DNA of 60,962 nt, filler included, from 3 parts of 3 records of this genome joined end to end with filler, not necessarily neighbours in it, one strand, 5' to 3'. Shown: positions 35,449-59,435, numbered from the whole stretch's first letter. Translations and numbers: made by a program. The notes: generated by a model from the letters alone, not told the origin.

Positions 35449-35496
35449 TTCGCCCCCTAAACTTACGTTGCAAGGGAGCATAGAATTTTTTGCAGT

Positions 35497-35512: not shown

Positions 35513-35626
35513 GTTTCCGACATGCAACAAATTGGTCCAGCAGGCATGATGGCTCTAATCAACCGAATCGAGTTTCGATCTCTGGATCGGCACAAATTCA
35601 ATGTTCAGACTGTCAAGGGGATAGCG

Positions 35627-36640
35627 ATGGACGACTTAAAGAGCGGAACGCGGGACAAGCGCGGCAATTGGCGCCCCAATGACGCCATTGAAAACGCGCC
35701 GGTCTTTATCTGGCCCATTCGCCCGATGAAATTCCTGCGCTGGTTGCCAAGCTATTTCCTGCCGTGGAACCTGACTTTTTTTGCTATCAGCGTGGTGTTC
35801 TGGTTTCTGTTGACACCGTCCCGTGAGACACTCGAATCGGTTGAGTGGGGATGGGTGATTTACTTGTTTGTACGCAACTCCGCGATCGTGATCCTGTTTT
35901 ACGGGGCGCTAGAACTGCGATTGTATGTGAAGCGGCGTCAAGGGACACATTTCAAATACAACGGCAAGTTTCCGTCGGAACATCCGTCCGATGTATTCAT
36001 GTTCAAAAGCCAAAACGTGGACAACATCATCCGCACATTTGGCACCGGATTGCCGATTTGGACCGCCTATGAGGTCGGAATGCTGTGGGCCTGGGCCAAC
36101 GGCTGGGGGCCTTGGGCCACCTTTTCTGAACATCCGATTTGGTTGATTTGCTTTGGTCTGGTTCTTCCCATCCTGCACGAATTCCATTTCTATTGCATTC
36201 ATCGGCTGATCCATATTCCGGTGCTGTATAAGTGGATCCATTCGGTACACCACAATTCGGTAAACCCGTCGCCGTGGTCATCGTTATCAATGCACCCCGT
36301 TGAACATCTGCTGTACTGGTCTGGCAGCCTGATCCATCTGGTTTTACCATCGCACCCACTGCTCATGATCTATCACCTCAATATTGCGGGAACGGGAGCT
36401 GTGGTCGGGCATGTCGGCTTCGACATGATTGAGACAGGTGAGGATGGCGCGTTCGATACACATGCCTATGCCCACTACCTGCACCACAAGTACTTCGAAG
36501 TGAACTACGCCGATGGGATGATGCCATTGGATCGTTGGATGGGCACTTGGCATGACGGTTCGAAAACCGGTGACAAAATCATGCAAGATCGTTTTCGCAA
36601 GAAGAAAGAAAAAGCAAACGCGCGCAAAGGGGAGGCCTAA
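35627..36640 (+). CDS. Sterol desaturase / fatty-acid hydroxylase family di-iron membrane oxygenase
   Basis: His boxes HFYCIHRLIH, IHSVHH, MHPVE, GHVG, HYLHH, NY; start reset to ATG 35627 after AAGGGG. Confidence 0.9.
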   Translation: MDDLKSGTRDKRGNWRPNDAIENAPVFIWPIRPMKFLRWLPSYFLPWNLTFFAISVVFWFLLTPSRETLESVEWGWVIYLFVRNSAIVILFYGALELRLYVKRRQGTHFKYNGKFPSEHPSDVFMFKSQNVDNIIRTFGTGLPIWTAYEVGMLWAWANGWGPWATFSEHPIWLICFGLVLPILHEFHFYCIHRLIHIPVLYKWIHSVHHNSVNPSPWSSLSMHPVEHLLYWSGSLIHLVLPSHPLLMIYHLNIAGTGAVVGHVGFDMIETGEDGAFDTHAYAHYLHHKYFEVNYADGMMPLDRWMGTWHDGSKTGDKIMQDRFRKKKEKANARKGEA

Positions 36641-36756: not shown

Positions 36757-37734
36757 ATGAGTATCTTTAAGAATGTAATGGGGGCACTGCTGGCGACAGC
36801 TACGTTAGGCGTTGCACCGGTAATGGCTCAAGAAGGCGCAACCATCGCGATTATCGGTGGTCGTGCGGATGATGCGTTTTTCGCGAAAATTGGTCGTGGC
36901 ATTGATGATGCAACGCTTGTTGTCGAAGCCCATGGAGGCACCGTCAATTATTTGCAGTTGCAAACCTATGATAACATTGGTGGTGACGCTGCAAACCTTG
37001 TCCGAACAGCGATCAGCCAAGGTGTCGACATCATTGCGGTTCCAAATTGGGTTCCGGACGCGCAGGACGAGGCGATCGAGGCAGCTATGGCTGCGGGCAT
37101 TCCCGTTATGCTTTATAATGCTGGTGGCGGGGATAAGGCGGCAGAACTCGGCGCGATCAACTATATTGGCAACGAAGAATACCCTGCTGGCCTTGCTGGT
37201 GGTAAATACTTTGCCGAACATGGCGCGACGAACGTAATTTGTGTAAATACGGTGCCCGGTGCAGGTAACCTCGAAGCGCGCTGCGATGGCATCCGTGATG
37301 GGATGGCCGAGTCTGGTGGCGTTTCGGAACAGCTTCCGCTGCCAGCAAGCGCATTTGGAGATCCAACAGCGGTTGCCGAAGCGATCAAAGCGACATTGCT
37401 TGGCGATGAAACTATCGATGGTATCTTTACGATTTCCTCTGCGGATGCAGACAGTGCGTACATCGGGATGCAGCAGGCGGGACGGGTGGAAACCGTCGCC
37501 CTTGGTTCATTCGACATGAACGTGGCTGGCCTTGAGCGTATCCGTGACGGTGAACAGCTTTTTGCGATTGACCAGCAGCCCTGGTTGCAGGGCTTTCTGG
37601 CGGTGACGCTAGCCGATGGTTACGTGAACTATGGTCTAGCGATGGCGACGTCGCCGTTGCTGACAGGGCCGGGCATCGTGGATGCATCCAACATCGAAGC
37701 CACACTTAAGGGCGGAGAACTTGGCTATCGCTAA
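36757..37734 (+). CDS. Sugar/cyclitol ABC transporter substrate-binding protein 1
   Basis: Signal peptide; PBP type-1 motifs DDAFF, NLEARC, FAIDQQPWLQG; RBS GGAGG. Confidence 0.9.
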   Translation: MSIFKNVMGALLATATLGVAPVMAQEGATIAIIGGRADDAFFAKIGRGIDDATLVVEAHGGTVNYLQLQTYDNIGGDAANLVRTAISQGVDIIAVPNWVPDAQDEAIEAAMAAGIPVMLYNAGGGDKAAELGAINYIGNEEYPAGLAGGKYFAEHGATNVICVNTVPGAGNLEARCDGIRDGMAESGGVSEQLPLPASAFGDPTAVAEAIKATLLGDETIDGIFTISSADADSAYIGMQQAGRVETVALGSFDMNVAGLERIRDGEQLFAIDQQPWLQGFLAVTLADGYVNYGLAMATSPLLTGPGIVDASNIEATLKGGELGYR

Positions 37735-37747
37735 GACTGAATTTGTT

Positions 37748-37773
37748 CGGCCCGTAGACGTTTCTGCGGGCCG
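37748..37773 (+). terminator. Intercistronic hairpin after SBP gene 1 (attenuating or mRNA-stabilising)
   Basis: CGGCCCGTAGA-CGTT-TCTGCGGGCCG. Confidence 0.55.
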
Positions 37774-37838
37774 TTACATCGGCATGACCTAACGATATGG
37801 TTGCCACCAGCCACCGAACAAACACGGGGACATTTCCA

Positions 37839-38834
37839 ATGAGTCGTTTATCAATCGGCAGTCTATTTCGCCGACCAGAGGCCGGAGCCTTTCTGGGAAT
37901 GGTCGCAGTCATTGCCTTCTTTCTAATTTTCGGCGGCATAAATTTTTTGAAACCGTCCGGTATCGCGAGTTGGCTAAACGTTGCCGCCAACATTGGGATT
38001 ATTGCAATACCGGTCGGGTTGTTGATGATCGCAGGTGAATTAGACATTTCCATCGGGTCAATGATCCCCGCGGGGTCGATGATCGTGGCAATCATGTCCG
38101 GCCACTATGACTTCCCGATTTGGATGTCGATCATTGTGGTGCTCGGGTTTGGTGTAGTTGTCGGGTTTATCAACGGCTTTTTGGTCGTTCACACAGCCGT
38201 CCCGTCGTTGATTGTAACGCTTGGTACTTTGTTCGCAGTAGCGGGTCTCGTGCTTGGCCTATCGGTGCTGATCACAGGAACGACCAGCGTATCGATCAAG
38301 GCACCGGACTTTTACAAAGCCGTTTTCGGGCAATTTATTGGTGGTACCTATCAAGTTATCATCTTGTGGTGGTTTGCTGTGACAGTCGTTTATATTTTCT
38401 ACATCCACTATACAAAGTACGGCAATTGGATCTTCGCCATGGGAGGCGACCGTGAAAGCGCACGCAATGCCGGTATTCCGACCACGAAACTGACAATCAT
38501 CTTGTTCATCCTGTCGGCGTGTAGCGCGGCGTTCGTGGGCATGTGTCAGGCGCTGCTGTTCAACTCGGCGCAAGTGTCTGCGGGGATGTCTTATATCTTT
38601 AACGTGATCATTTCGGTGGTCGTCGGGGGCGTTGTCCTAACGGGTGGATTTGGGTCCGTCGTCGGGATCGTCTTTGGCACCATTACTTTTGCGGTGGTCA
38701 ATCAAGGCATCTATTTCACAAGTTTTGATCGAAACTGGTCAAGTTTGATTATCGGCGTGATGCTGTTGGCCGCCGTCCTGATGAACAACACCTTCCGCTC
38801 CATGGCGCTGTCTTATGCGCCAAAGAAGAAATGA
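37839..38834 (+). CDS. Sugar ABC transporter permease 1 (RbsC-like)
   Basis: [46 protein letters not shown]. Confidence 0.92.
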
Positions 38835-38844
38835 GGGCCAACCG

Positions 38845-39633
38845 ATGACTTCTCCAGTTCTGGAACTCCGTAGTGTTGATAAATCCTTTGGGCCGATCGA
38901 CGTGCTGCATGATATTTCCCTCAAGATGAATGAAGGCGAGGTGCTTTGCCTGCTCGGGGATAACGGTGCGGGTAAATCAACGCTTATCAAGACGCTATGT
39001 GGTGTCCACAAGCCGACACGGGGTTCCATCCTTATGGATGGCGCGGAGGTGACATTCTCCACCCCGCGAGAGGCCCAAGATAAAGGCATCGCCACCGTGC
39101 ACCAATTTGGCGGCACATTTCCGTTGATGAGCATTGGGCGCAGTTTCTTCGTGGGTGTGGAGCCCACCAAAGGATGGGGTCCGTTCAAGATCTACGATCG
39201 CAAGAAAGCCAATAAGATCGCGGTCGAGGCTGTGCAGAACTTCGGCATCACGCGCGTCGATGACGGTGATCGTCTGATAGGCGGCTTGTCAGGTGGTGAA
39301 CGTCAGTCGCTGGCCATTGCCCGCGCGGTCCATTTCGGCGCGCGTGTTCTTATCCTTGATGAACCAACAGCCGCGCTCGGGGTCAAACAGGCCGCACACG
39401 TTCTTCGCATCGTGAACGAGGCAAAACGCCGGGGATTGGCCGTGATTTTCATCACTCACCAGGTCATGCATGCCATGGCAGTGGGCGATCATTTCGCAGT
39501 GTTGATCCGTGGCGCTATCGCTGCCGATTTCCGCAAAGGCGAACGGTCCCGCGAAGAGATCACCGACTTGATGGCGGGCGGCGAAACGATGGCAGATCTC
39601 GAAAGGCAAATCGAAGGCTATGCCGATGCTTAA
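38845..39633 (+). CDS. Sugar ABC transporter ATP-binding protein 1 (single NBD)
   Basis: [25 protein letters not shown]. Confidence 0.94.
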
Positions 39634-39755
39634 GCTAACAACACGACGCGTCGAGCTCCCAAGGTGTCGGTCGGGGAGCGCAGTCCAGTCCGGAGGTTGT
39701 CTCCCGGCCTCCCACTCTGAAAGGCGCTCCCCTCTTTATGATCTGGCAAACCTAA

Positions 39756-40760
39756 ATGATCGTTAGAATTGCAGTCATCGGCGCAGGATTGATGGGCGCG
39801 GACCACGCCAAGATCATTGCGGAGGATTTGCCGGGCGCGCAGTTGCAAATTGTGTGCGATATGGACGTCACCCGCGCACAAGGCTTGGCGGATCGCTATG
39901 GGGCGGTCGATGTTGCCATCGACCCGGACATCGTGATTGCCCGCGATGACGTGGATGCGGTAATCTTGGCCAGCCCGGATTTTACCCATGCGCCGCTGTC
40001 ATTGGCCTGCATCAAAGCGGGTAAGCGGGTGCTATGTGAAAAACCTTTGTCGCAGCTGCCGGGTGAATGTCTTGCTGTCATGGCCGCTGAACAGGCCTCA
40101 GGTGCGAAACATGTGATGTTAGGTTTCATGCGCCGTTATGATCAATCTTATATCGAGATGAAGCAGGCGCTTGACGGTGGCACTTTGGGTCGCGCTTTGA
40201 TGATGCACAATTTCCACCGCAACGTGGAAACGCCTGCCGCTGATTTCACGGGCGCCATGGCGATCACAAACTCTGCGCCGCACGAATTTGACGTGGTTCG
40301 CCATGTGCTGGGAACAGAATATGCGTCGATCACGGCCTTTCAGCCAAAGCGCTCTGACGCGCTGGTGGCCCCTGTCGTCATGGTTCTGGAAACCACAGAT
40401 GGCCAGCTGGTGACAATCGAGATCAACAACAATGCCGCCTACGGATACGACGTACGCGGCGAATTGGTGGGCGAGGCAGGCGCGATTGCAATGAACAGCG
40501 TGGCCTACACCCGCACTGACATGAAACTGTCAAGTTCCACCCGCTATGAATCCGATTGGCGAGGCCGTTATCATGCGGCTTATGTTCGCCAAAACCGCGA
40601 CTTTCTGGCCTATGTCGAAACGGGAAAATTCCCTGACATTGCATCGGATTGCTGGGATGGATACTGCGCCGCGATTGTAGCCCAAGCTGGCATTGAAGCC
40701 TTGGTTTCGGGTACGAAAACACAGGTCGTGATGGCCCCCAAACCGGAGTTTTACGCATGA
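39756..40760 (+). CDS. Gfo/Idh/MocA inositol dehydrogenase-like oxidoreductase
   Basis: VIGAGLMG, LCEKPL, GFMRRYD, YGYDVR. Confidence 0.9.
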   Translation: MIVRIAVIGAGLMGADHAKIIAEDLPGAQLQIVCDMDVTRAQGLADRYGAVDVAIDPDIVIARDDVDAVILASPDFTHAPLSLACIKAGKRVLCEKPLSQLPGECLAVMAAEQASGAKHVMLGFMRRYDQSYIEMKQALDGGTLGRALMMHNFHRNVETPAADFTGAMAITNSAPHEFDVVRHVLGTEYASITAFQPKRSDALVAPVVMVLETTDGQLVTIEINNNAAYGYDVRGELVGEAGAIAMNSVAYTRTDMKLSSSTRYESDWRGRYHAAYVRQNRDFLAYVETGKFPDIASDCWDGYCAAIVAQAGIEALVSGTKTQVVMAPKPEFYA

Positions 40761-41716
40761 AACTGGGCTTTGTGTCTGACAGCCTTGGTGGAATGTCTTT
40801 CACCGACATGCTCGATCATGCGCAGCGCGTGGGCGTTTCGGGGGTTGAGGTAAACACCTGCGGGTGGTCAACGGCGCCACATTTCGATCTAAAAGGACTG
40901 CTGGGCAACAAGACGGCCCAAGCCGCCTTTCAGAAAGAGTTTTCTGATCGCAACCTTGAGATCATCAGCCTGAATGCTAACGGAAATCCGCTGCATCCGA
41001 CTGACCCGACACATGGACAGGGGCTGCGCGACACCATCTGCGTCGCGGGTGAAATGGGCATCAAGACCGTTTGCACCATGTCGGGCCTACCAGCAGGGTC
41101 CGCCAATGATGCTATGCCCAACTGGATCGTTTCCTCTTGGCCACCTGAAACGCAAGATATTCTGCGCTTTCAATGGAACGAGAAACTGATCCCGTTTTGG
41201 ATCGAAATTGTTGCGCTGGCACAGGAAAACGGGGTCGAGAAGATTGCATTGGAAATGCATGGCAACCAATGCGTCTACAACGTGCCGTCGCTGTTGAAAC
41301 TGCGCGAAGCTGTAGGTCCGATTGTCGGCGCTAACCTTGATCCAAGCCACCTATTTTGGATGGGGGCTGATCCGTTGATTGCAGCGCAGGCATTAGGGCA
41401 TGCAATTTATCACGTGCATGCAAAAGACACGATGCTTAATGCACCTGTGCAGGCAACCACCAGCTTACTGGAGAATGGCTCTCTTATGGATGTTCCGGCC
41501 CGCAGCTGGTCTTATATCACGCTCGGGTTTGGCCACGGTGAAGAATGGTGGCGACAGTTCTGCTACCGACTCAAAATGGCAAATTACGATGGTTGGCTTT
41601 CGATCGAGCATGAAGACGTTTTGCTGAACTCGTTAGAAGGATTGGAGAAGTCCGTGACGCTTCTTCAAGGTGTTATGCCTGATCGCCCGGCAGATTATAG
41701 GCCACAGGACATTTGA
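40757..41716 (+). CDS. Sugar-phosphate isomerase/epimerase TIM-barrel protein (inosose isomerase/epimerase-like)
   Basis: LEMH, NLDPSH, HVHAKD and SIEHED metal motifs. Confidence 0.88.
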   Translation: MKLGFVSDSLGGMSFTDMLDHAQRVGVSGVEVNTCGWSTAPHFDLKGLLGNKTAQAAFQKEFSDRNLEIISLNANGNPLHPTDPTHGQGLRDTICVAGEMGIKTVCTMSGLPAGSANDAMPNWIVSSWPPETQDILRFQWNEKLIPFWIEIVALAQENGVEKIALEMHGNQCVYNVPSLLKLREAVGPIVGANLDPSHLFWMGADPLIAAQALGHAIYHVHAKDTMLNAPVQATTSLLENGSLMDVPARSWSYITLGFGHGEEWWRQFCYRLKMANYDGWLSIEHEDVLLNSLEGLEKSVTLLQGVMPDRPADYRPQDI

Positions 41717-48343: not shown

Positions 48344-49350
48344 CCGTTCGTTTTGCAATTCTGGGTGCTGGTCGGATCGGCCAGGTTCATGCCCGCGCTG
48401 TCGCTTCAACCGAGGGCGCGTCCCTTGTCGCAATCGCCGATCCTATGGCGGCTGCGGCGCAAAAAGTGGCTGACAATTACGGTTGCGACATCCGCTCTAT
48501 TGACGCGATTGCCGCAAGCGATGATGTCGATGCCGTGGCTATTTGTACGCCGACAGACACTCACGCCGACTTGATTGAGCAATTTGCCGGCGCCGGAAAG
48601 GCAGTGTTCTGCGAAAAGCCGATCGATCTTGATCTGGAGCGGGTCAAGGATTGCCTCAAGACCGTCAGCGAAGAAAACGCGACCTTGATGGTTGGCTTCA
48701 ATCGTCGGTTCGACCCTGATTTTATGACGTTGAAGAAGGCTATTGACGACGGCAAGATCGGTGACGTCGAGATGGTCACGATTTCCAGCCGCGATCCCGG
48801 CGCACCACCTGCGGAATACATCAAGGTGTCGGGCGGTATTTTCCGCGACATGACAATTCATGATTTTGACGTGGCGAGATGGTTGCTGGGTGAAGAAATC
48901 GCAACCGTGCAAGCGGCGGCATCTGTCCTGACCGACCCCGAGATCGGTAAGCTGGGCGACTACGACAGCGTCAACGTCATCCTGACGACGGAAAGCGGAA
49001 AACAATGCACCATCACCAATTCGCGTCGTGCAACCTATGGCTACGACCAGCGGATTGAGGTTTTGGGATCCAAGGGGTCAGTCGCGGCCGAAAACATGCG
49101 CGAAGCCAACATCGTGTTGGCGGACGAGAGCGGGTTCCACCAGCCGCCGTTGCTCGACTTCTTCATGACGCGCTATATCGCTGCTTATGCCAACGAGATA
49201 GCCGGATTTGTTGCAGCCGTTTCGGGCAAGACCGCAACGCCAACCACCGGCCACGACGGAATGGTGGCGCTGGCACTGGCGGATGCGGCTTTGTTGTCAG
49301 TGGCGGAGCAGCGCGTGGTGAAATTGTCGGAACTAAAGGTTTCGACATGA
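48340..49350 (+). CDS. iolG: myo-Inositol 2-dehydrogenase
   Basis: GAGRIG, FCEKP, GFNRRFDP, SGGIFRDMTIHDFD, YGYDQRIE. Confidence 0.93.
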   Translation: MTVRFAILGAGRIGQVHARAVASTEGASLVAIADPMAAAAQKVADNYGCDIRSIDAIAASDDVDAVAICTPTDTHADLIEQFAGAGKAVFCEKPIDLDLERVKDCLKTVSEENATLMVGFNRRFDPDFMTLKKAIDDGKIGDVEMVTISSRDPGAPPAEYIKVSGGIFRDMTIHDFDVARWLLGEEIATVQAAASVLTDPEIGKLGDYDSVNVILTTESGKQCTITNSRRATYGYDQRIEVLGSKGSVAAENMREANIVLADESGFHQPPLLDFFMTRYIAAYANEIAGFVAAVSGKTATPTTGHDGMVALALADAALLSVAEQRVVKLSELKVST

Positions 49351-51272
49351 CCAAGACCCTTGATTTAATCACGATTGGTCGAAGTTCGGTTGATCTCTAT
49401 GGCGTGCAGATTGGTGGACGCCTAGAGGACATGGGGGCGTTTGATAAATATATCGGTGGCTCACCAACGAATATCGCCTGTGGGACTGCGCGGTTGGGGT
49501 TGAAGTCTGGGGTTGTCACGGCGGTTGGTGATGAACACATGGGCCGCTTCATTAAGGAACAACTGGCGCGGGAAGGTGTGAGCACGAAGGGGGTGAAAGT
49601 TGACCCTGACCGCCTGACGGCACTGGTGTTGTTGGGTATCCGCGACAGCGAACAATTCCCGTTGATATTCTATCGCGAGAACTGCGCCGATATGGGACTG
49701 ACGGTGGATGATGTCGACGAGGAGTTTATTATGTCGGCCCGTGCAGTGGTGGCGACAGGCACACACCTGAGCCATCCGCAGGTCGAGGCGGCGACGCTGA
49801 AGGCATTAGAAATCGCGCGGACTAATGACATGCAGACCGCGCTTGATATTGATTACCGTCCAAACTTGTGGGGCGTTGCGGGCCACGGTGATGGCGAAAG
49901 CCGTTTTGTTGAAAGCGCGGAAGTTACGTCCAAGCTTCAGACCACTTTGCATTTGTTTGATTTGATCGTGGGCACCGAAGAGGAGTTCCACATAGCTGGG
50001 GGCACCACCGACACCATCGCGGCGCTACGGGCCGTCCGCGCCGTGTCAGGTGCAACTTTGGTGTGTAAGCGCGGCGCGGATGGTGCGGTGGCGTTTACGG
50101 GTGACATTCCGGAGATCCTTGACGATGGCCAATCCGGTCCGGGCTTTCCGATTGAGGTCTTTAATGTCTTGGGCGCGGGCGACGGCTTTATGTCCGGCCT
50201 TCTCAAGGGGTGGCTGGACGGTGAGGATTGGGCAAACACGTTGAAATATGCCAATGCCTGTGGCGCCTTTGCCGTTTCGCGACACGGTTGCACTCCAGCT
50301 TATCCATCTTGGGACGAACTCCAGTTTTTCTTTGAGCGCGGCATCAAGCAACCCGATCTGCGCAACGATGTCGAACTGGAACAGGTCCACTGGGCTACGA
50401 ACCGTCGGGGCACTTGGTCTTCGGTCAAAACTTTCGCGTTTGATCACCGTTTGCAGCTTGAAGAGATGGACGGGTACAGCCTGAAGAAAGCCGGTGCCTT
50501 TAAACGACTCTGCCTTGATGCGGCTCTGCAAGTGCAGAACGGGCAGCCGGGTTTCGGAATTCTATGTGACAACCGGATCGGGCGTCGCGCGCTTCATGCC
50601 GCCAGCGGATCAGGACTGTGGATTGGCAGACCGACAGAATTGCCAGGATCACGCCCGATCGAGTTTGAGCCGGAGTTGGGCGAGGATTTTGGCCAATTGC
50701 GAGAATGGCCGAGAGAGAATGTCGTGAAACTGTTGGTCTTTTGTCATCCAGATGATGACGTCGATACAAAGAAGACTCAGGAGGAGCGGGTTAAGCGCCT
50801 ATTTACGGCGGCGCGGCGCAACGATTTGGAATTCCTGCTTGAGGTGATCCCATCCAAGGTTGGCCCCGTCGATGATATGACGACGCCAAAACTGATCCAG
50901 CAATTTTACGATGTCGGCGTCTATCCCGATTGGTGGAAGCTTGAACCGTTCAAGACTGACGCCGCATGGTCCAACGCGGTAGAGGCAATCGAGCGCAACG
51001 ATTCGCGCACGCGCGGGATTGTGGTTCTGGGTCTTGATGCCCCCCAGAGCGAGCTTGCAGCGTCTTTTGCGCTCGCGGCGAGACAGCCGTTGGTCAAAGG
51101 GTTTGCTGTTGGCCGCACCATCTTTGGTGATGCGGCGCGTGCATGGATGCAAAATGAAATGTCGGACGCTGACGCGGTTGATCATATGGCGGCTCGCTTC
51201 GCAGGGCTTTGCGACGTCTGGGATGCGGCGCGTGTTGATGCCCGATTGAATAGGGAAAAAGCTAATGGTTAA
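49347..51272 (+). CDS. iolC: 5-dehydro-2-deoxygluconokinase with C-terminal DUF2090 aldolase domain
   Basis: GRSSVDLYG, DIDYRP, NVLGAGDGF, FAFDHR, PDWWKLEP, GFAVGRTIF. Confidence 0.95.
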   Translation: MTKTLDLITIGRSSVDLYGVQIGGRLEDMGAFDKYIGGSPTNIACGTARLGLKSGVVTAVGDEHMGRFIKEQLAREGVSTKGVKVDPDRLTALVLLGIRDSEQFPLIFYRENCADMGLTVDDVDEEFIMSARAVVATGTHLSHPQVEAATLKALEIARTNDMQTALDIDYRPNLWGVAGHGDGESRFVESAEVTSKLQTTLHLFDLIVGTEEEFHIAGGTTDTIAALRAVRAVSGATLVCKRGADGAVAFTGDIPEILDDGQSGPGFPIEVFNVLGAGDGFMSGLLKGWLDGEDWANTLKYANACGAFAVSRHGCTPAYPSWDELQFFFERGIKQPDLRNDVELEQVHWATNRRGTWSSVKTFAFDHRLQLEEMDGYSLKKAGAFKRLCLDAALQVQNGQPGFGILCDNRIGRRALHAASGSGLWIGRPTELPGSRPIEFEPELGEDFGQLREWPRENVVKLLVFCHPDDDVDTKKTQEERVKRLFTAARRNDLEFLLEVIPSKVGPVDDMTTPKLIQQFYDVGVYPDWWKLEPFKTDAAWSNAVEAIERNDSRTRGIVVLGLDAPQSELAASFALAARQPLVKGFAVGRTIFGDAARAWMQNEMSDADAVDHMAARFAGLCDVWDAARVDARLNREKANG

Positions 51273-53094
51273 TACAATTCGACTGACAGCGGCGCAGGCC
51301 ATGGTGAAATTTGTTGCGGCCCAGAAAACCGAAACCGGAGAGCCGTTTATCGCCGGATGTTGGGCTATTTTTGGTCACGGGAATGTCGCGGGGGTGGGTG
51401 AGGCGCTGTACCAAGCGCAAGACGACCTGCCGACGTGGCGCGGGCACAATGAACAGACAATGGCACACGCAGCGATCGCCTATGCCAAACAATTAGGCCG
51501 CAAGCGGGCAATGATGGTCAGCTCTTCCATCGGGCCGGGAGCCACCAATATGGTCACCGCCGCCGCTTTGGCCCACGTGAATCGCCTACCAGTTCTTTTG
51601 GTGCCGGGAGATGTGTTTGCCAATCGCGGTCCTGATCCGGTTCTGCAACAAGTCGAGGATTTCAACGACGGCACGGTAAGCGCAAACGACGTGTTCAAAC
51701 CTGTCAGTCGTTATTTTGACCGCATCACACGGCCCGAACAATTGTTGACGGCATTGCCGCGTGCCTTTCGCACAATGACCGATCCTGCGGATTGTGGTCC
51801 AGTGACATTGGCATTCTGTCAGGATGTGCAGGCAGAGGCCTTCGACTATCCCGAAAGCTTTTTTGCGCCCAAGGTCTGGGTCGCGCGCCGGATGCGTCCG
51901 GACGTTGATGAATTGGCCGCGATGGCGGATGCAATCAGGGCCGCCAAGCGTCCGATCATCGTTGCGGGTGGCGGGGTGCACTATTCGGGCGCAACGGAGG
52001 CCTTGCGCAGCTTTGCCGAGGCACACAATATTCCCATTGCTGAAACGCAGGCGGGGAAATCCGCGCTTCCATGGGACCATCCTCTCAATCTGGGGCCGAT
52101 CGGGGTGACGGGGGGTGCGCCAGCGAATACGGTGTGCGCCGAGGCTGATTTGGTGTTCGGCGTCGGCACACGGTTTCAGGATTTCACCACTGGGTCATGG
52201 GGATTGTTCGCCAATCCCGTTCGTCGGATCGCCTGTCTGAACGTGGCGGCCTATGATGCGGCCAAGCATGACGCTTTGCCGCTTTTGGCGGACGCAAGGG
52301 CGGGGCTTGGCGAATTGTCTGCCGCTCTGGGAAAACATCAATCGACGGCTGGGATTGACGGCCTGACATCCGACTGGTTTGACAAGGTTGATCCCTTGAC
52401 CACCGCGCCGGATGGCAATGCGCTTCCTACCGACATGCAGGTCGTGGGTGCGGTGCAACGCGCGGCAACTGACGACACGGTTGTGATGTGCGCAGCGGGC
52501 ACGATGCCCGGTGAGCTCCATAAGTTGTGGAAATCCAGCCGCCCGATGTCTTATCACATGGAATACGGTTTCAGCTGTATGGGCTATGAGATTGCGGGCG
52601 CTATGGGCATCAAGATGGCGCAACCAGACCGCGATGTGATCTGCTTCACTGGCGACGGCACCTATATGATGGCGAATTCAGAAATGGCGACAGCGGCGAT
52701 GATGGGCATTTCGTTTACTGTCTTGGTGACGGACAATCGCGGCTATGGTTGTATCAACAGGCTGCAAATAGGCACAGGTGGGGCAGAGTTTAACAACCTG
52801 CTAGACCATTCAGTGCACTCACAGCCCTCTGCCATCGACTTTGCGGCCCATGCGGCCTCAATGGGGGCGACGAGCGTTAAGGTTACCTCCATTGCCGATC
52901 TGGAACTGGCTTTGTCAAAGCGGGGCGATGTGGCGGGACCATATGTTGTGGTGATTGACACCGATCCGTATCCCTCGACCGAACACGGCGGCACATGGTG
53001 GGACGTTGCTGTGCCACAGGTATCCAAGCGCGATAAAATAAACGCAGCACGATCCGCATATGAAATTAATAAAACAAAGCAAAGGACAGACTGA
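51265..53094 (+). CDS. iolD: 3D-(3,5/4)-trihydroxycyclohexane-1,2-dione acylhydrolase
   Basis: AIFGHGNVAG, PDPVLQQ, YHMEYGFSCMGYEI, WWDVAVP. Confidence 0.96.
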   Translation: MVNTIRLTAAQAMVKFVAAQKTETGEPFIAGCWAIFGHGNVAGVGEALYQAQDDLPTWRGHNEQTMAHAAIAYAKQLGRKRAMMVSSSIGPGATNMVTAAALAHVNRLPVLLVPGDVFANRGPDPVLQQVEDFNDGTVSANDVFKPVSRYFDRITRPEQLLTALPRAFRTMTDPADCGPVTLAFCQDVQAEAFDYPESFFAPKVWVARRMRPDVDELAAMADAIRAAKRPIIVAGGGVHYSGATEALRSFAEAHNIPIAETQAGKSALPWDHPLNLGPIGVTGGAPANTVCAEADLVFGVGTRFQDFTTGSWGLFANPVRRIACLNVAAYDAAKHDALPLLADARAGLGELSAALGKHQSTAGIDGLTSDWFDKVDPLTTAPDGNALPTDMQVVGAVQRAATDDTVVMCAAGTMPGELHKLWKSSRPMSYHMEYGFSCMGYEIAGAMGIKMAQPDRDVICFTGDGTYMMANSEMATAAMMGISFTVLVTDNRGYGCINRLQIGTGGAEFNNLLDHSVHSQPSAIDFAAHAASMGATSVKVTSIADLELALSKRGDVAGPYVVVIDTDPYPSTEHGGTWWDVAVPQVSKRDKINAARSAYEINKTKQRTD

Positions 53095-53999
53095 TGGCTG
53101 TCAAAATTGGCATTTCCCTAATCGCTTGGCAGAACGATGACCTGCCGGACTTGACCGCCGGATTCACGACCGAGGGCGCAATGGAGGACGCAGGGCGCAT
53201 CGGCTATCAGGGTGTCGAACGCGGCCGCCGGATGCCAGCCGATACGGATGGGCTGCGCAGCTATCTCGACCGTTACGGCGTGTCGCTGTGTGGGGGGTGG
53301 TGTTCAGGCAGCCTGATGACCGCCTCGCTCGAGGATGAGAAAGCCGCCGTGCTTCAACAAGTAGAACAATTCGTGGCACTTGATGCGCCTTGCATCGTTT
53401 ACGCTGAATGTTCGAACAGCGTGCAGGGCGACCTTTCTATGCCCGTTCGTAACCGCCCGAAGTTAAGCCGTGACGACGTGAAATCCTACGCATTAAAGCT
53501 GACGGAACTAGCCAAATGGATGTCGGACAAGGGGATGAGGCTGTCATATCACCACCATATGGGCAGCATGATTGAAGACTCCGAAGACATAGATTGGCTC
53601 ATGGAGGGGTCGGGCCCCGAAGTGACGCTGCTATATGATACAGGCCATTTGCTATTTGCGGGGGCCGACCCGCTGGAGGTACTCGATCGATGGGGTGACC
53701 GCGTGCACCATGTTCATTTCAAAGACGTGCGTCCCGACAAGATGGCATGGGTTCGCACAGAAAATCGCAGCTTTCTGGATGGCGTGCGGGCAGGGGTTTA
53801 CTCAGTACCAGGCGATCCCGAAGGCTGCATTGATTTTCAGGCAATAACAGATCGGCTTAAGGCGATGGATTATGGCGGCTGGATTGTGGTCGAGGCTGAG
53901 CAAGATCCGGCGCTGGCTCCGCCGTATGAATATTCAAAGTTGGGCTATGATCATATCGTCGACATTTGTGGCCGCTCTGGCCTGACACTCAAAAACTGA
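53094..53999 (+). CDS. iolE: Inosose dehydratase
   Basis: AWQNDD, YHHHMG, DTGH, HVHFKD, WIVVEAEQDP. Confidence 0.95.
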   Translation: MAVKIGISLIAWQNDDLPDLTAGFTTEGAMEDAGRIGYQGVERGRRMPADTDGLRSYLDRYGVSLCGGWCSGSLMTASLEDEKAAVLQQVEQFVALDAPCIVYAECSNSVQGDLSMPVRNRPKLSRDDVKSYALKLTELAKWMSDKGMRLSYHHHMGSMIEDSEDIDWLMEGSGPEVTLLYDTGHLLFAGADPLEVLDRWGDRVHHVHFKDVRPDKMAWVRTENRSFLDGVRAGVYSVPGDPEGCIDFQAITDRLKAMDYGGWIVVEAEQDPALAPPYEYSKLGYDHIVDICGRSGLTLKN

Positions 54000-54009
54000 A
54001 GGGAACGTC

Positions 54010-54816
54010 ATGGCTGATTTGCTGAAAAAACCGTTTGGAACCCGCGGCAAGGTGCATCAAATCACACGCGAAAGCGCAGGCTGGCGATATGTCGGTTTCT
54101 CGCTTTATCGCCTGAAAGCCGGGGACGAAGCGGCAGAAGTGACCGGCGACCTTGAAGTCATCCTTGTTATGGTCGAAGGCAAGGCGGCCATCACCGGTGG
54201 TGGTCAGGATTGGGGCGTTTTGGGCGACCGCATGAACGTGTTCGAAAAGACGCCGCCGCATTGCCTATATCTGCCGAATGGCACGGATTGGGCGGCCAAG
54301 GCTGAAACCGATTGTGTCATTGGCGTCTGCACGGCACCGGGCATTGGCGGGCATAAAGCACGGCGCATCGGGCCCGACGGCATCACCTTGACAGAGCGCG
54401 GCACAGGAACCAACACACGCCACATCAACAATATAGCGATGGAAAACGAGGATTACTGTGACAGTTTGTTGGTGACCGAGGTGTTCACACCGGCGGGCCA
54501 TTGGTCGTCCTATCCAAGCCACCGACACGATGAAGACGATTACCCCCACATCACATACCTTGAGGAAACCTATTACCACCGCCTAAACCCTGCGTCAGGC
54601 TTTGGTATCCAAAGGGTCTATACCGACGACGGGCAGTTGGACGAAACAATGGCGGTGTCTGATGGCGACGTCGTTTGCGTGCCGCGCGGTCATCATCCCT
54701 GTGGCACCCCCTACGGGTTCGAGATGTATTACCTCAATGTCATGGCTGGGCCGCTCCGAAAGTGGCGTTTCGTTGCGGCTCCCGAGGTTGAATGGATCAT
54801 GGAACGCGACGCCTAG
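54010..54816 (+). CDS. iolB: 5-deoxy-glucuronate isomerase
   Basis: AGWRYVGF, WSSYPSHRHD, LEETYYH, YYLNVMAG. Confidence 0.96.
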   Translation: MADLLKKPFGTRGKVHQITRESAGWRYVGFSLYRLKAGDEAAEVTGDLEVILVMVEGKAAITGGGQDWGVLGDRMNVFEKTPPHCLYLPNGTDWAAKAETDCVIGVCTAPGIGGHKARRIGPDGITLTERGTGTNTRHINNIAMENEDYCDSLLVTEVFTPAGHWSSYPSHRHDEDDYPHITYLEETYYHRLNPASGFGIQRVYTDDGQLDETMAVSDGDVVCVPRGHHPCGTPYGFEMYYLNVMAGPLRKWRFVAAPEVEWIMERDA

Positions 54817-55844
54817 AAGGATTCCGGCACATACAACTGAGGTGTCAGGAAGTGCTGGCCCGGGCTGGAAGTTTGTCCGCTAAGCTGCGACTCAATCATC
54901 AACTGAACCACATTTTCGCACAGTTCTTGCAGCGGTGTGGCAATAACCATTGTGGCATAGCGATCTACAAGGGCTTTTCGGCTGTCATCTGTCAGCTCAT
55001 TTACGACGAGCGCCACCTTACCGGGCGGCCGCTTTTCGCGCAAAGCGGCGATCGCGCCTTCCATCCCGCCGCCGGCTACATAGATGCCACGCAGATCTGG
55101 TTGGCGGTCCAGGAGATCTAGCGTTGCTTCATAGGTGACCTGGCGGGTTTCGAGATTGACCACCGTGTCGATCATTGAGAAATCCGGCGCGTATTCGCGG
55201 ATGTAACTTTGGAATCCCGTCTCGCGCATCAGATGTCCGTGCCACCGGTTGCCGCCCACAAATACAGCCAACTTACCGGGAGTGCGTGCGTGCGTTGTTA
55301 GCATCCATGCCGCAGTGCGTCCGACTTTGACGTTGTCCAGCCCAAGGTAGTTCTGTCGGATGTTTTGGGCAAAGTCGTTCAACAGCGCAAAGACAGGCGT
55401 GCCTGTGCGGGCAAGGTCGCTTACCAGTTCGGATAGGGACGGGTGGTTGATTGCCGATGTCGCAATCGCATCCGTCTGCTGCGCAACGACTTCTATTTCT
55501 TTTGCGAAGTCGTCTGGCGCTTGCGACGCTGCGAAGCGAATGACTGCCCGGCCACGGATGTCGGTCCGGCTATTGACAACATCTTGCAGGGCTGCTGCGA
55601 AATTACGGTAAAACTCTTGCGATCCTTTATGAAGTACGAATCCAAAACGGATCAGAGGGCGACTGGCCTCGTCGCGTCGTGCGGATAACACGCGGGTCGG
55701 GTAGCCGATACGCTCGGCCTCGTCCAAAACACGATCGAGTGTTTCCTGGCGCACGTTGGAGCGCCCGTTAAGCGCACGATCCACCGTCGCAACGCCGACG
55801 CCTGCGGCATACGCAAGATCTTTAAGGGTCGGGCGCTTCGTCAT
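54813..55844 (-). CDS. LacI-family regulator 3, divergent from mocD (paralogue of regulator 2)
   Basis: HTH LKDLAYAAGVGVATVDRAL; shares FVGGNRWHGH and NLETRQVTYEA with LacI-2; start reset to MTKRPT. Confidence 0.93.
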   Translation of the reverse strand: MTKRPTLKDLAYAAGVGVATVDRALNGRSNVRQETLDRVLDEAERIGYPTRVLSARRDEASRPLIRFGFVLHKGSQEFYRNFAAALQDVVNSRTDIRGRAVIRFAASQAPDDFAKEIEVVAQQTDAIATSAINHPSLSELVSDLARTGTPVFALLNDFAQNIRQNYLGLDNVKVGRTAAWMLTTHARTPGKLAVFVGGNRWHGHLMRETGFQSYIREYAPDFSMIDTVVNLETRQVTYEATLDLLDRQPDLRGIYVAGGGMEGAIAALREKRPPGKVALVVNELTDDSRKALVDRYATMVIATPLQELCENVVQLMIESQLSGQTSSPGQHFLTPQLYVPESF

Positions 55845-55853
55845 TGGTGTCCT

Positions 55854-55910
55854 TGATTGAATCACATCACTTGTTGGCGTTCTGATGATGTATTTTGATG
55901 TATAATCATG
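55854..55910. promoter_or_regulatory. Operator region between lacI-3 and mocD
   Basis: TGATTGAATCACATCA (55854-55869, reverse complement TGATGTGATTCAATCA) plus TGATGT half-sites at 55886 and 55896. Confidence 0.6.
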
Positions 55911-55973
55911 CTCACCACAAGACGAGAAATGCCGCAGTCTGATACTCATAGGTTAGATTGCTGATAACGAGAT

Positions 55974-57077
55974 ATGACGATGCAAAAACGTGATTATTCG
56001 CTGCTGGGACCGGATGCGCAGCGCGCAGTTGAGACAGGATTGGCAGCTGCCAACTGGTATCATACGGACATCGCGCGCAAAGACATGAAGGCGCTGATGA
56101 AGCGCGAGGATCAGCCTGCGATCCGAGACACGGTGATCTTGTTCAGCGCCATGACGATCTTTGTTGTTTTGGGTGTAGCGCTTTGGCCATCTTGGTGGTC
56201 GGCGCCGTTCTGGCTCGCCTATGGTGTTCTATATGGATCAGCGATGGACAGTCGCTGGCACGAATGCGGGCATGGTACACCATTCCGCACTGCGAAATAT
56301 AATGACTGGGTCTACCAAATCGCGTCATTCTGCATGGTTCGCAATCCGGTGACGTGGCGTTGGGGTCATGCGCGCCACCATACCGATACCGTAATCGTCG
56401 GTCGCGACCCCGAGATCGTCGCGATGCGGCCACCTGCGCTGTTTCGCATTCTTCTGAACTTCTTTGGTATTCTGGATGCGTTCCAAGGCTGGAAAACGAT
56501 GGTCCAGAATGCATTTGGCCACCTTGATCCCGAAGCCGCAAGTTACATCCCCCAAAGCGAGCAGCCCAAGGTGTTTCGCACAGCGCGGATCTGGGTTGCG
56601 ATCTATGCGGTTGTCCTGCTTCTTGCGGTGGCGACGCAATCTATTCTACCGCTCATGATCATCGGATTGCCGCGCCTTTACGGGGCCTGGCATCACGTTA
56701 TGACCGGCATTTTGCAGCACGCCGGTCTTGCAGATAACGTCATCGACCACCGCCTGAACAGCCGCACGGTCTACATGAACCCGATCAGCCGGTTCATCTA
56801 CTGGAACATGAACTACCACGTGGAACACCATATGTTTCCAATGGTTCCCTATCATCGGCTGCCCGAATTGCATGCGGCGATCAAACATGACCTGCCGGCG
56901 CCGAATCCGTCAATTTGGCAAGCCTACAAAGAGGTTTGGCCAATCCTGAAGCGGCAACTGACTTATCATGATGAATTTCTGATGCGCAGCCTCCCCGGGG
57001 GAGCGCAGCCATACCGCAACGATTTGCATCAAAGCGCACTTGGAGAAACGACTCCAACAGCGACTCCGGCAGAATAA
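55974..57077 (+). CDS. mocD: MocD-like fatty-acid-desaturase-family hydrocarbon oxygenase
   Basis: His boxes WHECGH, GHARHH, QHAGL, NYHVEHH; followed by a Rieske ferredoxin and a reductase as in rhizobial mocDEF. Confidence 0.85.
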   Translation: MTMQKRDYSLLGPDAQRAVETGLAAANWYHTDIARKDMKALMKREDQPAIRDTVILFSAMTIFVVLGVALWPSWWSAPFWLAYGVLYGSAMDSRWHECGHGTPFRTAKYNDWVYQIASFCMVRNPVTWRWGHARHHTDTVIVGRDPEIVAMRPPALFRILLNFFGILDAFQGWKTMVQNAFGHLDPEAASYIPQSEQPKVFRTARIWVAIYAVVLLLAVATQSILPLMIIGLPRLYGAWHHVMTGILQHAGLADNVIDHRLNSRTVYMNPISRFIYWNMNYHVEHHMFPMVPYHRLPELHAAIKHDLPAPNPSIWQAYKEVWPILKRQLTYHDEFLMRSLPGGAQPYRNDLHQSALGETTPTATPAE

Positions 57078-57088
57078 GGAATAGATAA

Positions 57089-57400
57089 ATGGCAAACTGG
57101 ATTGACGCCTGCGCGGCAGACGACATCGACGAAGAAGACGTGATCCGTTTTGATCACGATGGGCGCACCTTTGCGGTTTATCGCTCGCCCGATGACAATT
57201 ATTTCTGCACCGACGGACTTTGCACTCATGAACAGGTGCATCTGGCAGATGGTCTTGTGATGGATCACACCATTGAATGCCCTAAACACAACGGTCAGTT
57301 TGACTATCGTACGGGCGAGGCAACACGCACACCTGTCTGTGTGAACCTTGGGGTGTATCCGGTCAAGGTTGAGGGCGGTCGCGTCCTGATCGACATTTGA
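57089..57400 (+). CDS. mocE: MocE-family Rieske 2Fe-2S ferredoxin (copy 2)
   Basis: DGLCTHE, IECPKHNG. Confidence 0.9.
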   Translation: MANWIDACAADDIDEEDVIRFDHDGRTFAVYRSPDDNYFCTDGLCTHEQVHLADGLVMDHTIECPKHNGQFDYRTGEATRTPVCVNLGVYPVKVEGGRVLIDI

Positions 57401-58609
57401 ATGTCGGGCATTGTCATCATCGGGGCAGGGGAGTGCGGTGTGCGTGCGGCCTTTGCTGCCCGTGCCGAAGGCTTTGACGGTGAAGTTACGCTGGTTGGCG
57501 ACGAATGCGGCATGCCCTACGAACGCCCGCCGCTTTCCAAACCCGACGCGAATGGTGCAACCCTTAAACCGATATGCACCGCAGAGATGTTGGCTGCGAA
57601 AAACATTATGCTGTTAGATGGAGTTGCGGCAAAGCATATTAATAGGGAAGCCTCATGTGTACGCCTGTCCACCGGTGAGGATTTGACGTATTCGCGGCTG
57701 CTTTTGGCGACAGGTGCTAGCCCGCGCAGGTTGACATGCGAAGGCGGCGAACACGCGGTGACGCTGCGGACCATTGAAGACGCGAACCGGATTTACAGTG
57801 CAGCTGTGAAAAGGACACGCACGGTAATAATCGGGGCTGGTCTTATAGGGCTGGAACTCGCCGCCGAACTGGTTGGACGTGGTAGCAAAATTACGGTTCT
57901 AGAAGCCGGGCCAGTGCCGCTTGGCCGCAATGTTCCGCAACCCCTCGCACAACGTATAGTCGAGCGCCACCTAGCCGAGGGCGTGGATATCGTCTGTAAC
58001 GTCGAGGTCGCGCGCATTTCCAGTCGTGCTGTCGAATTGGTGGGCGGTCAGTTGATTGCCGCAGATCTGGTTGTTGCGGCCATTGGTGTTGTTCCAAATA
58101 CGGATCTCGCACAGGCCGCTGGTTTGTATATCGGTAACGGGATCGCCGTTGATGAGGCATTGCGCACCATTGACACCAACATTTTTGCCGCTGGAGATTG
58201 CGCAAGTGTGAACTTCTCGGGGCTTGGGCTTCAAAGATTTGAAACTTGGCAGAATGCTCAGTTCCAAGGTGAGATCGCGGGTCGGAACTTGGCAGGTGCG
58301 TCCGGTGTTTTCCAACCTCCAGTCTGGTTTTGGTCCGATCAATACGACCTTGGCTTGCAGGGTGTCGGTCAAACCATTGGAAAAGCTACTGCGCAACGCA
58401 CGCTTTCGGATGATGCAAAGATCCTGTTTTACCTGAATGATGCCGGACAATTGGTTGGCGCGGCTGGCTTGGGTGTCGGTAACGCGGTCGCCAAAGACAT
58501 CAAGCTGGCGCAGAAACTGATTGAGGCCAAAGTGGCGGTCGCGGCTGCAAGCCTTGAAGATCCAACAACAAATTTAAAGAAATTGCTCAAACCCGCTCCG
58601 GCGAACTGA
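57401..58609 (+). CDS. mocF: FAD-dependent ferredoxin reductase (MocF-like)
   Basis: IIGAGECG, YERPPLSK, IIGAGLIGLE, FAAGDC, WFWSDQYD. Confidence 0.88.
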   Translation: MSGIVIIGAGECGVRAAFAARAEGFDGEVTLVGDECGMPYERPPLSKPDANGATLKPICTAEMLAAKNIMLLDGVAAKHINREASCVRLSTGEDLTYSRLLLATGASPRRLTCEGGEHAVTLRTIEDANRIYSAAVKRTRTVIIGAGLIGLELAAELVGRGSKITVLEAGPVPLGRNVPQPLAQRIVERHLAEGVDIVCNVEVARISSRAVELVGGQLIAADLVVAAIGVVPNTDLAQAAGLYIGNGIAVDEALRTIDTNIFAAGDCASVNFSGLGLQRFETWQNAQFQGEIAGRNLAGASGVFQPPVWFWSDQYDLGLQGVGQTIGKATAQRTLSDDAKILFYLNDAGQLVGAAGLGVGNAVAKDIKLAQKLIEAKVAVAAASLEDPTTNLKKLLKPAPAN

Positions 58610-58625
58610 GCTTAAGGAGAACGAC

Positions 58626-59435
58626 ATGGATCTTTATCACAAGCGGCCAACAGTGGCGGATATTCGAGCGCTTAAGGGCAAGCGTCAACTGACGATGTTA
58701 TACGTAGAAACGCCCGATGAGGCCGCGGCGGCGGCGGCGGCGGGGATTGATATGTTGTCGATTATTGATCCCGCTTGGACCGAAGAAATGCGCAAGGCGG
58801 CGGGAAATTGTTTTGTGCAGGTCGGGCTGCTTTACGGTCAACTCGTAACGCTTGAAGATTACCAACGTGCCGCGCACCGCGCGATGCAAGTGGGCGGCGA
58901 TTGCGTCTATTGTGCATCGTCCATGGGCACGATCAAAGCGCTCGCTGATGATGGAATTCCGGTTGTAAGCCATGTTGGTCTGATCCCGTCCAAGTCAACA
59001 TGGACCGGCGGCTTTAAAGCCGTGGGAAAAACCGCTGAGAGCGCAATGCAGGTTTTGGACCACGTCAGACAACTCGAAGACATCGGCTGTTTCGGCGTGG
59101 AACTGGAAGTCGTTCCTGATCGCGTCGCGATTGAAATATCGAAACGAACAAACCTTGTTTTACTCGGCATGGGGGCTGGCCCGCATGCTGACGCGCAATA
59201 CCTATTCGCCGAAGACGTATTGGGGTGCACTACGGGCCATAAGCCGCGCCACGCAAAGACGTACCGCAATTTTGCCAGCGAATTCGACCGCCTGCAGCAA
59301 GAACGCATTGCCGCGTTCCGCGAGTTCAAGGCCGATGTCGATGGGGCTGCCTATCCAGCAGCAGACCATTCCGTAAAAATCAGCGATGACGAGCTAGAAA
59401 AATTCATCGCCCGATTGAATGATACCGCGACCTGA
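58626..59435 (+). CDS. PanB-like hydroxymethyltransferase paralogue lacking the canonical Mg2+ ligands
   Basis: Keeps SHVGLIP, GGFKAVGK, LEVVP, GMGAG and DAQYL; lacks GDS, D(M/L)PF and VKxEG. Confidence 0.82.
   Translation: MDLYHKRPTVADIRALKGKRQLTMLYVETPDEAAAAAAAGIDMLSIIDPAWTEEMRKAAGNCFVQVGLLYGQLVTLEDYQRAAHRAMQVGGDCVYCASSMGTIKALADDGIPVVSHVGLIPSKSTWTGGFKAVGKTAESAMQVLDHVRQLEDIGCFGVELEVVPDRVAIEISKRTNLVLLGMGAGPHADAQYLFAEDVLGCTTGHKPRHAKTYRNFASEFDRLQQERIAAFREFKADVDGAAYPAADHSVKISDDELEKFIARLNDTAT

Follow-up and report, generated by a model that had tools for sequence, protein, structure and literature searches.

A PanB-fold protein encoded with mocDEF is a probable one-carbon partner of methyl-group monooxygenases

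The stretch of DNA analyzed here (60,962 nt including filler, from three parts of three records of one genome joined end to end; the window) contains, at positions 55,974 to 59,435, the genes of a MocDEF-type oxygenase followed by a paralog of ketopantoate hydroxymethyltransferase (PanB), called PanBL here. The best explanation of PanBL is that it is probably the one-carbon (C1)-handling partner of MocDEF-type methyl-group monooxygenases, and not an enzyme of pantothenate synthesis. In the specific reading that we prefer, PanBL would transfer the methyl carbon oxidized by MocDEF, as a hemiacetal or as free formaldehyde, to tetrahydrofolate (THF), and FolD and PurU would convert it to formate. 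We put the probability of this reading, which is drawn from sequence comparisons, at roughly 55%.

The five genes mocD, mocE, mocF, PanBL and purU are located on the + strand, with gaps of 11, 0, 16 and 40 base pairs (bp) between them. The placement of PanBL in the original prediction, 16 bp after mocF and directly before purU, is therefore correct, with purU 40 bp downstream. A convergent gene for a type II dehydroquinase closes the block. In the MocD-like protein there are two hydrophobic stretches as well as three His boxes, with the sequences HECGH, HARHH and HVEHH. For the MocF-like protein, the nearest NCBIfam models are ferredoxin reductases, with every score below its cut-off. A single operon thus encodes a MocE-family Rieske ferredoxin, a ferredoxin reductase and a di-iron oxygenase of the FA_desaturase type whose sequence has three His boxes, as in a MocDEF-type ferredoxin-dependent oxygenase.

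No terminator-like site was found in the gaps of the block (the whole scan gave 6 sites, with 6.8 expected by chance, and the 4 sites on the + strand are intragenic). Three metatranscriptome libraries, marine or estuarine, and a fourth library whose kind is uncertain contain contigs with at least 99% identity to parts of each of the five genes; these are short fragments, which are proof neither of transcription nor of one common transcript, and the parts left uncovered carry no meaning. In PanBL, the contigs cover positions 58757-58907, 59083-59229 and 59073-59366. One contig bridges the mocE-mocF junction, and another (58493-58643) covers mocF through its stop codon and 18 nt of PanBL, which is weak evidence. 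PanBL is presumably co-transcribed with mocDEF.

PanBL matches the Pfam family PF02548 (Pantoate_transf) with 131.9 bits (gathering threshold 28.7), and the match is limited to profile positions 67-258. The fold of this family is a TIM barrel of the ICL/PEPM type. This is the sole Pfam match of the protein, and a GCV_T folate-binding domain was not found in it. Its scores are below the cut-offs of both NCBIfam panB models (98.6 compared to 207.55 for TIGR00222, and 118.4 compared to 272 for PRK00311). The AlphaFold (AF2) model of PanBL has a mean confidence (pLDDT) of 94.9, and a Foldseek search with this predicted structure finds PanB as the top fold in the Protein Data Bank (PDB), with an E value of about 1e-17 and a TM-score of about 0.7.

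The active site residues of E. coli PanB were mapped onto PanBL with a phmmer alignment to the 1m3u sequence, and by aligning the profile of 29 diverse PanBLs with that of 17 canonical PanBs (probability 100%, E 2.5e-57). The two alignments agree at the key positions. We take D45, D84, K112 and E114 to be the Mg2+/keto-acid residues of E. coli PanB. These four residues, as well as H136 and E181, are each found in 17 of 17 canonical PanBs. In PanBL, D84 is replaced by G67, K112 by Y95 and E114 by A97, and the segment matching residues 50-69 of the E. coli enzyme is deleted. On the other hand, H136 is retained as H116 (SHVGLIPS) and E181 as E161 (ELEVVP).

The same pattern is observed across the 29 diverse PanBLs. 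The aligned position has Asp for D84 in 1/29, Lys for K112 in 0/29 and Glu for E114 in 0/29, and the K112 position is occupied by Tyr in 23/29. The H136 and E181 equivalents are found in 29/29 each. The loss of the GDS, D84 and K112/E114 motifs and the retention of H136 and E181 had been described originally, and this stands for the most part, with GDS replaced by IDP. One detail does not, as Asp residue D48 still aligns with D45. It is not a conserved residue, being Asp in 4/29 diverse PanBLs and in 9/22 close orthologs. Other positions are highly conserved among PanBLs (in the numbering of the window's PanBL, P0001), including E159 (28/29), D189 (29/29), D197 (29/29), and a PRHAK motif with R208 (26/29), H209 (29/29) and K211 (20/29). 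A divalent metal is required by PanB for enolization (PMC7770189). By its sub-cut-off scores and lost residues, PanBL is a non-canonical PanB paralog without the Mg2+/keto-acid site, which agrees with the original description of the protein.

The PanBL reading frame is not due to chance, as it has 5538 relatives in the databases, many with 80-100% identity. Among 1.84 billion representative proteins, 122 match at E≤1e-30, and near-full-length matches are found in 281 plasmid records. In a maximum-likelihood tree, all 17 canonical PanBs group in a single clade (100/96), and together with the near-canonical P0189 they are set apart from the PanBLs by a long branch (1.31, 100/100). The PanBL side of the tree includes forms that retain the long loop and also lack the metal residues. 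PanBL is part of a broad sister family to canonical PanB. Two PF02548 stretches occur in P0124 (542 residues), which makes it a PanB-type protein of tandem or fused form.

All the named sources label PanBL proteins as 3-methyl-2-oxobutanoate hydroxymethyltransferase, and PanBL does pass the Pfam model of the family, which would fit a genuine, merely divergent ketopantoate hydroxymethyltransferase supplying pantothenate. We regard this as highly improbable, given the scores below both NCBIfam cut-offs, the replacement of D84, K112 and E114, and the location of PanBL in a LacI-regulated catabolic operon. Moreover, tblastn finds no panC in the window, as had been noted originally, and no canonical panB was found there with the same program. 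The nearest comparison genome, G001, has, in addition to PanBL, a separate canonical panB (302 bits with TIGR00222 and 354 bits with PRK00311) that adjoins panC.

Ten genomes in which PanBL is the sole PanB-like gene were checked, five of them metagenome-assembled genomes (G002-G006) and the others G088, G156, G253, G294 and G303. A panB gene above the cut-off was found in 0 of the 10; for G002-G006 Pfam alone was run, and their best Pfam panB matches (117-128 bits) cover the C-terminal part of the profile only. In 9 of the 10 panC was not found either, although absence from an incomplete genome is no proof. Four of these nine (G088, G156, G253 and G303) are 98-100% complete. An automatic PanB label on PanBL in the nine genomes would falsely suggest a partial pantothenate pathway. 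The tenth genome, G294, has panC together with just a PanBL-like gene, so ketopantoate synthesis is possible there.

Of 574 confirmed relatives in species-representative genomes, the best 80 were used to examine the linkage of PanBL to oxygenases, with at most 8 kb of flanking sequence. These loci were found from a 9-sequence alignment of close forms and cover the close PanBL subfamily only (61-83% identity). Neighboring genes were detected by tblastn with the window proteins and two further oxygenase queries, and the calls of open reading frames in these loci are a crude, conservation-weighted choice. An oxygenase of the MocD or FA_hydroxylase type and/or MocE is located within 8 kb of PanBL in 56 of the 80 loci, and within 1.5 kb in 52. 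MocF is found in 12/80. A divergent LacI-type gene upstream of MocD recurs in many of the loci. In all five checked genomes where PanBL is unlinked (5/5), a MocD ortholog (54-60% identity) is present elsewhere. The functional tie of PanBL to mocDEF is therefore supported by the conserved linkage, and the homologs away from mocD-like oxygenases, which could have spoken against it, have largely not done so.

The linkage extends to oxygenases of other families and to distant forms of PanBL. In Mesorhizobium-type loci, an oxygenase of another di-iron family (PF04116) accompanies an ATP-binding cassette (ABC) transporter, MocE, an AP_endonuc_2 barrel and PanBL. In G001, PanBL is 34% identical to P0001 and is located between mocD-like and mocE-like genes, with a gap of 1 bp to the former. 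No inositol genes are found in this operon (L003), and its class II aldolase-like protein scores 412 bits with NF005689. Small genomes have the module as well, with the order MocD-MocF-MocE-PanBL-MocD-FA_hydroxylase in G215 (1.6 Mb) and MocD-PanBL pairs in G036 and G345 (1.4 Mb). In Sinorhizobium pSymB replicons the order is LacI-MocD-MocE-MocF-PanBL. Marinovum algicola FF3 has the block as well (L010). The PhyH-type dioxygenase in L038 is a third oxygenase class adjoining PanBL.

The closest guide to the methyl group in question is plasmid pPR12A203 of Rhizobium indicum. Here a Gfo/Idh/MocA oxidoreductase, a sugar-binding protein and a MocR-type pyridoxal phosphate-dependent (PLP) regulator precede an oxygenase block, with the order fatty-acid-desaturase-family gene, MocE-family ferredoxin, flavin adenine dinucleotide (FAD) oxidoreductase, PanBL and purU. 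This PanBL has 54.5% identity to P0001 (tblastn) and is annotated "3-methyl-2-oxobutanoate hydroxymethyltransferase". This repeats the five-gene order of the window, here as part of a moc locus of the rhizopine type. The methyl group of rhizopine is reportedly taken off by MocDE(F), according to the model of Bahar et al. 1998.

Rhizopine is 3-O-methyl-scyllo-inosamine, an O-methyl ether, and its catabolic genes are given as mocCABRDEF (PMC6668481; for the genes also PMC10107442 and PMC5789663). Mimosa root exudate induced mocDEF homologs and iol genes in R. mesoamericanum, with pinitol the most concentrated measured compound of the exudate (PMC5789663). In another locus (L095, in G045), the MocDEF-PanBL genes are followed by a binding protein of the OpuAC type (betaine class), which suggests that the module may also serve N-methylated osmolytes. 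The rhizopine-type locus, the induction by the root exudate and the OpuAC context all point to methyl groups bound to heteroatoms, and not to C-methyl inositols. The regulator in the window is of the LacI and not the MocR type and there is no aminotransferase, so its substrate is more likely to be a methyl-inositol than an inosamine. By analogy with the rhizopine model and from the iol gene context, MocDEF of the window may O-demethylate a methyl-cyclitol.

The original prediction had favored a different chemistry, in which laminitol or mytilitol is hydroxylated by MocD at its C-methyl group, the adjacent ketone is formed by a dehydrogenase, and PanBL transfers the C-bound CH2OH to THF by a retro-aldol reaction. 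C-methyl inositols have been reported from algae. This C-demethylation would mirror the reverse reaction of PanB, for which the H136 and E181 equivalents are retained, and it fits the several IolG-type dehydrogenases in the window and the marine habitat, the stretch being found in seawater metagenomes. We consider it very unlikely, however, because the five-gene block is shared with a rhizopine-type locus, where the substrate is an O-methyl ether, because a divergent MocDEF-PanBL block lies beside a betaine-type (OpuAC) binding protein, and because the enolate-stabilizing Mg2+ ligands and K112 are missing throughout the family. In addition, with two oxygenase families and varied neighbors, a generic C1 role fits better than one special carbon skeleton. 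The alternative that had been offered alongside, in which PanBL captures the C1 unit released by O-demethylation, has the better support.

FolD and PurU together provide a route from methylene-THF to formate. purU is located directly after PanBL both in the window and in L004. In L043 (Cypionkella) the order is MocD-MocE-PanBL-IolG-like-(110 aa)-FolD-PurU, and in L070 FolD is downstream of PanBL and adjoins it. In the window itself, folD was not found by tblastn. There is a precedent for a THF-coupled demethylase in the purU-mabO-folD operon (PMC3891541). The proposal that the role of PanBL concerns a C1 unit and THF is probably correct, in view of the purU/folD clustering and the retained half of the PanB site.

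The tight linkage to oxygenases, with the 1-bp gap between the mocD-like gene and PanBL in G001, would also be compatible with a role that does not involve THF. PanBL could be a triosephosphate isomerase (TIM)-barrel enzyme acting on a cyclitol or inosose (an isomerase, a lyase or an aldolase for formaldehyde and a carbonyl), or a non-catalytic subunit of MocD. The PRHAK motif with its invariant H209, together with the Tyr residue in place of K112 in 23/29 PanBLs, suggests a rebuilt site, and purU and folD are missing from most of the loci. We judge such a role to be unlikely. The best-conserved part of PanBL is the part common to the methylene-THF enzyme, and the clustering with purU/folD recurs in distant lineages. 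Moreover, the contexts span several substrate classes, with transporters of both inositol and betaine types, which argues against an enzyme specific for one skeleton.

In the preferred reading, transfer of the oxidized methyl carbon to THF, the pathway would proceed as follows. MocD, supplied with electrons by the MocE ferredoxin and the MocF reductase, would hydroxylate a methyl-inositol (pinitol or ononitol, for example) at its O-methyl group, and the product would be the hemiacetal R-O-CH2OH. PanBL appears to retain the half of the site that is common to the methylene-THF enzyme (H116, E159/E161, D189, D197 and R208-H209) and to have lost the Mg2+/2-keto-acid half. It would move the hydroxymethyl group, or the formaldehyde freed from the hemiacetal, onto THF, producing 5,10-methylene-THF and free inositol. 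FolD, whose gene is presumably elsewhere in this genome but belongs to the cluster in some of the relatives, would then act with PurU to oxidize and hydrolyze the carbon carried by THF to formate, which would free THF again. The freed inositol would enter the adjacent iolCDEB pathway through IolG.

Several points weigh against this reading, in addition to the presence of panC in G294. THF use by PanBL is presumed, with homology as the sole basis for THF binding. Hemiacetals decay unaided, so an enzyme is not chemically required, and purU beside a demethylase could be explained by spontaneous chemistry between formaldehyde and THF as well. Among the 80 loci, PurU is within 8 kb of PanBL in only 6, and 24 have no oxygenase or MocE within 8 kb, although the flank is shorter than 5 kb on at least one side in 9 of these. 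Co-occurrence in 401 genomes, an even draw from the class (the unpublished G246 and G046 count in the denominators only), gives points on both sides. PanBL was scored as present in 23/401 on a full-length match of at least 130 bits, a threshold set after the scores were seen, and the co-occurrence counts are descriptive only, as related genomes are not independent. In favor of the reading, a MocD-family match (E≤1e-20) is found in 18 of the 23 PanBL-positive genomes, compared to 45 of the 378 others, and the two genes are within 2 kb of each other in 8/23. Against it, the other five PanBL-positive genomes (G125, G167, G281, G310 and G397) have no MocD-family match at this E value. A MocD match of at least 200 bits occurs in 16 genomes, and 12 of these have PanBL, again in favor; the other four (G069, G081, G256 and G367) do not, so the oxygenase can function without PanBL.

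The neighborhoods of PanBL in the genomes without MocD are uninformative; in G310, for example, PanBL is beside a glutathione S-transferase (GST). In G281 (L091, G281:C1, 9927-10850), PanBL has as its neighbor a YgfZ/CAF17-type protein that carries a GCV_T folate-binding domain, which may be a further, faint hint of a folate connection.

The coordinates of the features are collected in Table 1.

Table 1. Features of the window and of three related loci. Positions are those of the window unless a locus is named.
Feature	Position	Strand	Evidence or content
PanBL, PanB-fold paralog, 269 residues	58626..59435	+	Candidate hydroxymethyl/formaldehyde:THF transferase without the Mg2+/keto-acid residues
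Shine-Dalgarno-like AAGGAG	58614..58619	+	6 nt ahead of the PanBL ATG, from sequence
MocD-like membrane di-iron oxygenase, 367 residues	55974..57077	+	PF00487 FA_desaturase, 124.3 bits
MocE Rieske 2Fe-2S ferredoxin, 103 residues	57089..57400	+	TIGR02377 MocE_fam_FeS, 183.5 bits (cut-off 136.15)
MocF-like ferredoxin-NAD(P)+ reductase, 402 residues	57401..58609	+	PF07992, 217 bits; Reductase_C, 59 bits
PurU, formyl-THF deformylase, 294 residues	59476..60360	+	TIGR00655, 335.6 bits (cut-off 285.95); NF004684, 425.9 bits (cut-off 223)
LacI-family regulator, divergent from mocD	54813..55949	-	PF00356 and PF13407
iolC(+aldolase)-iolD-iolE-iolB	49347..54816	+	NF047869, 695 bits; TIGR04377, 891; TIGR04379, 373; TIGR04378, 335; all above the NCBIfam cut-offs
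Second membrane di-iron oxygenase, FA_hydroxylase family	35318-36640 (homology from 35621)	+	PF04116, 68.1 bits
Distant PanBL operon, L003 (G001:C1:2859000-2878000)	7985-10960		LysR (divergent), class II aldolase-like, MocD-like, PanBL, MocE-like
L095 (G045:C1:1110000-1126000)	about 6084-10685	-	MocD-MocE-MocF-PanBL, then OpuAC-type (betaine-class) binding protein
L038	7860-12546		PanBL-PurU-MocE-MocF, then PhyH-family Fe(II)/2-oxoglutarate-type dioxygenase (PF05721) in place of MocD

The second oxygenase in the window (35621..36640) is 56% identical (tblastn) to the Mesorhizobium oxygenase found alongside MocE and PanBL. A LacI-divergent cluster begins with it and continues with an ABC transporter, an IolG-like dehydrogenase and an AP_endonuc_2 barrel (36691-41716). 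This cluster is without its own ferredoxin, reductase and PanBL and may therefore share those located at 57-59 kb, so that the second oxygenase may be a further client of MocE/F and PanBL.

The window is of chromosomal origin, from a Rhodobacteraceae-type bacterium of marine habitat, and has relA/spoT, lepB, era, sucAB-lpd, sucCD and sulfite reductase genes. Close protein relatives carry names such as Loktanella, Marivivens and Marinovum, and the same stretch is recovered in seawater metagenomes. The inositol-utilization region extends from 36 kb onwards and contains two sugar-type ABC transporters, three IolG-type dehydrogenases, xylose-isomerase-like barrels and LacI-type regulators. One tRNA gene lies at 13739-13811 on the - strand (Rfam RF00005, 60.8 bits), in a stretch of low G+C content at 12-14 kb (0.44, compared to about 0.53-0.58 in adjacent bins).

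A broader proposal, which we hold only tentatively and would not bet on at even odds, is that PanBL is the first dedicated THF-specific hydroxymethyl- or formaldehyde-activating enzyme. As an offshoot of PanB that does not depend on Mg2+, it would convert hemiacetals or hemiaminals directly into 5,10-methylene-THF; these would be the products of demethylating oxygenases, membrane di-iron enzymes and perhaps others, with O-methyl cyclitols and N-methyl osmolytes alike as the sources. Such an enzyme would be widespread in marine and soil Alphaproteobacteria, including streamlined genomes of 1.4-1.6 Mb, and everywhere mis-annotated as a vitamin B5 enzyme. This would matter because the condensation that formaldehyde and THF undergo spontaneously is described as slow in vivo, too slow for much flux, and no THF-specific formaldehyde-activating enzyme is described in the accessible text of the source (PMC7073904).

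If the proposal is correct, PanBL would fill this gap as a natural enzyme for the formaldehyde-THF step, which would be relevant to one-carbon metabolism and synthetic methylotrophy. Thousands of genes named "3-methyl-2-oxobutanoate hydroxymethyltransferase" would be misnamed, and pantothenate prototrophy would be predicted too often where a genome has the PanBL paralog only. The use of methylated cyclitols (pinitol, ononitol and rhizopine) by marine Rhodobacteraceae and rhizobia without the release of toxic formaldehyde would be explained. Finally, the classical mocDEF operon would gain two unrecognized genes, PanBL and purU.

Canonical PanB (EC 2.1.2.11; PDB entries 1M3U, 3VAV, 1O68 and 1OY0) has the same fold and belongs to the same Pfam family as PanBL. 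The H136 and E181 equivalents, a GxGxG...D stretch and a D..G motif are common to the two proteins. In comparison, PanBL is without D84, K112, E114 and residues 50-69, and has an extra C-terminal helix and the PRHAK motif. PanBL is found in catabolic oxygenase operons and not with panC.

The mocDEF genes for rhizopine in Sinorhizobium meliloti L5-30 and Rhizobium leguminosarum are homologous to those of the window and have the same order. The locus differs in the window, which has a LacI-type and not a MocR-type regulator and no aminotransferase. The published rhizopine operon consists of mocDEF only in the accessible text of the accounts, with PanBL and purU unmentioned there (PMC10107442 and PMC5789663; supplements were outside the search). 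No literature linking a PanB paralog to mocDEF or to demethylation was found, in a search that left subscription journals and supplements outside.

GcvT-like THF-binding domains are found in dimethylglycine dehydrogenase, heterotetrameric sarcosine oxidase and trimethylamine N-oxide (TMAO) demethylase. The logic proposed for PanBL is like that of such oxidative demethylases, where an oxidized methyl group becomes 5,10-methylene-THF and is then handled by FolD/PurU, including gamma-N-methylaminobutyrate oxidase (purU-mabO-folD; PMC3891541). PanBL differs from the GcvT-like acceptors in having an unrelated fold, in being a separate polypeptide, and in its partner, which is a membrane di-iron oxygenase and not a flavoprotein. 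With Fae, which acts on tetrahydromethanopterin, PanBL would share the role of condensing formaldehyde enzymatically with a pterin carrier; the cofactor is different and the families are unrelated. The combination of an oxidative demethylase with a THF C1 acceptor is therefore known, and what would be new is an acceptor with the PanB fold, partnered with membrane di-iron oxygenases.

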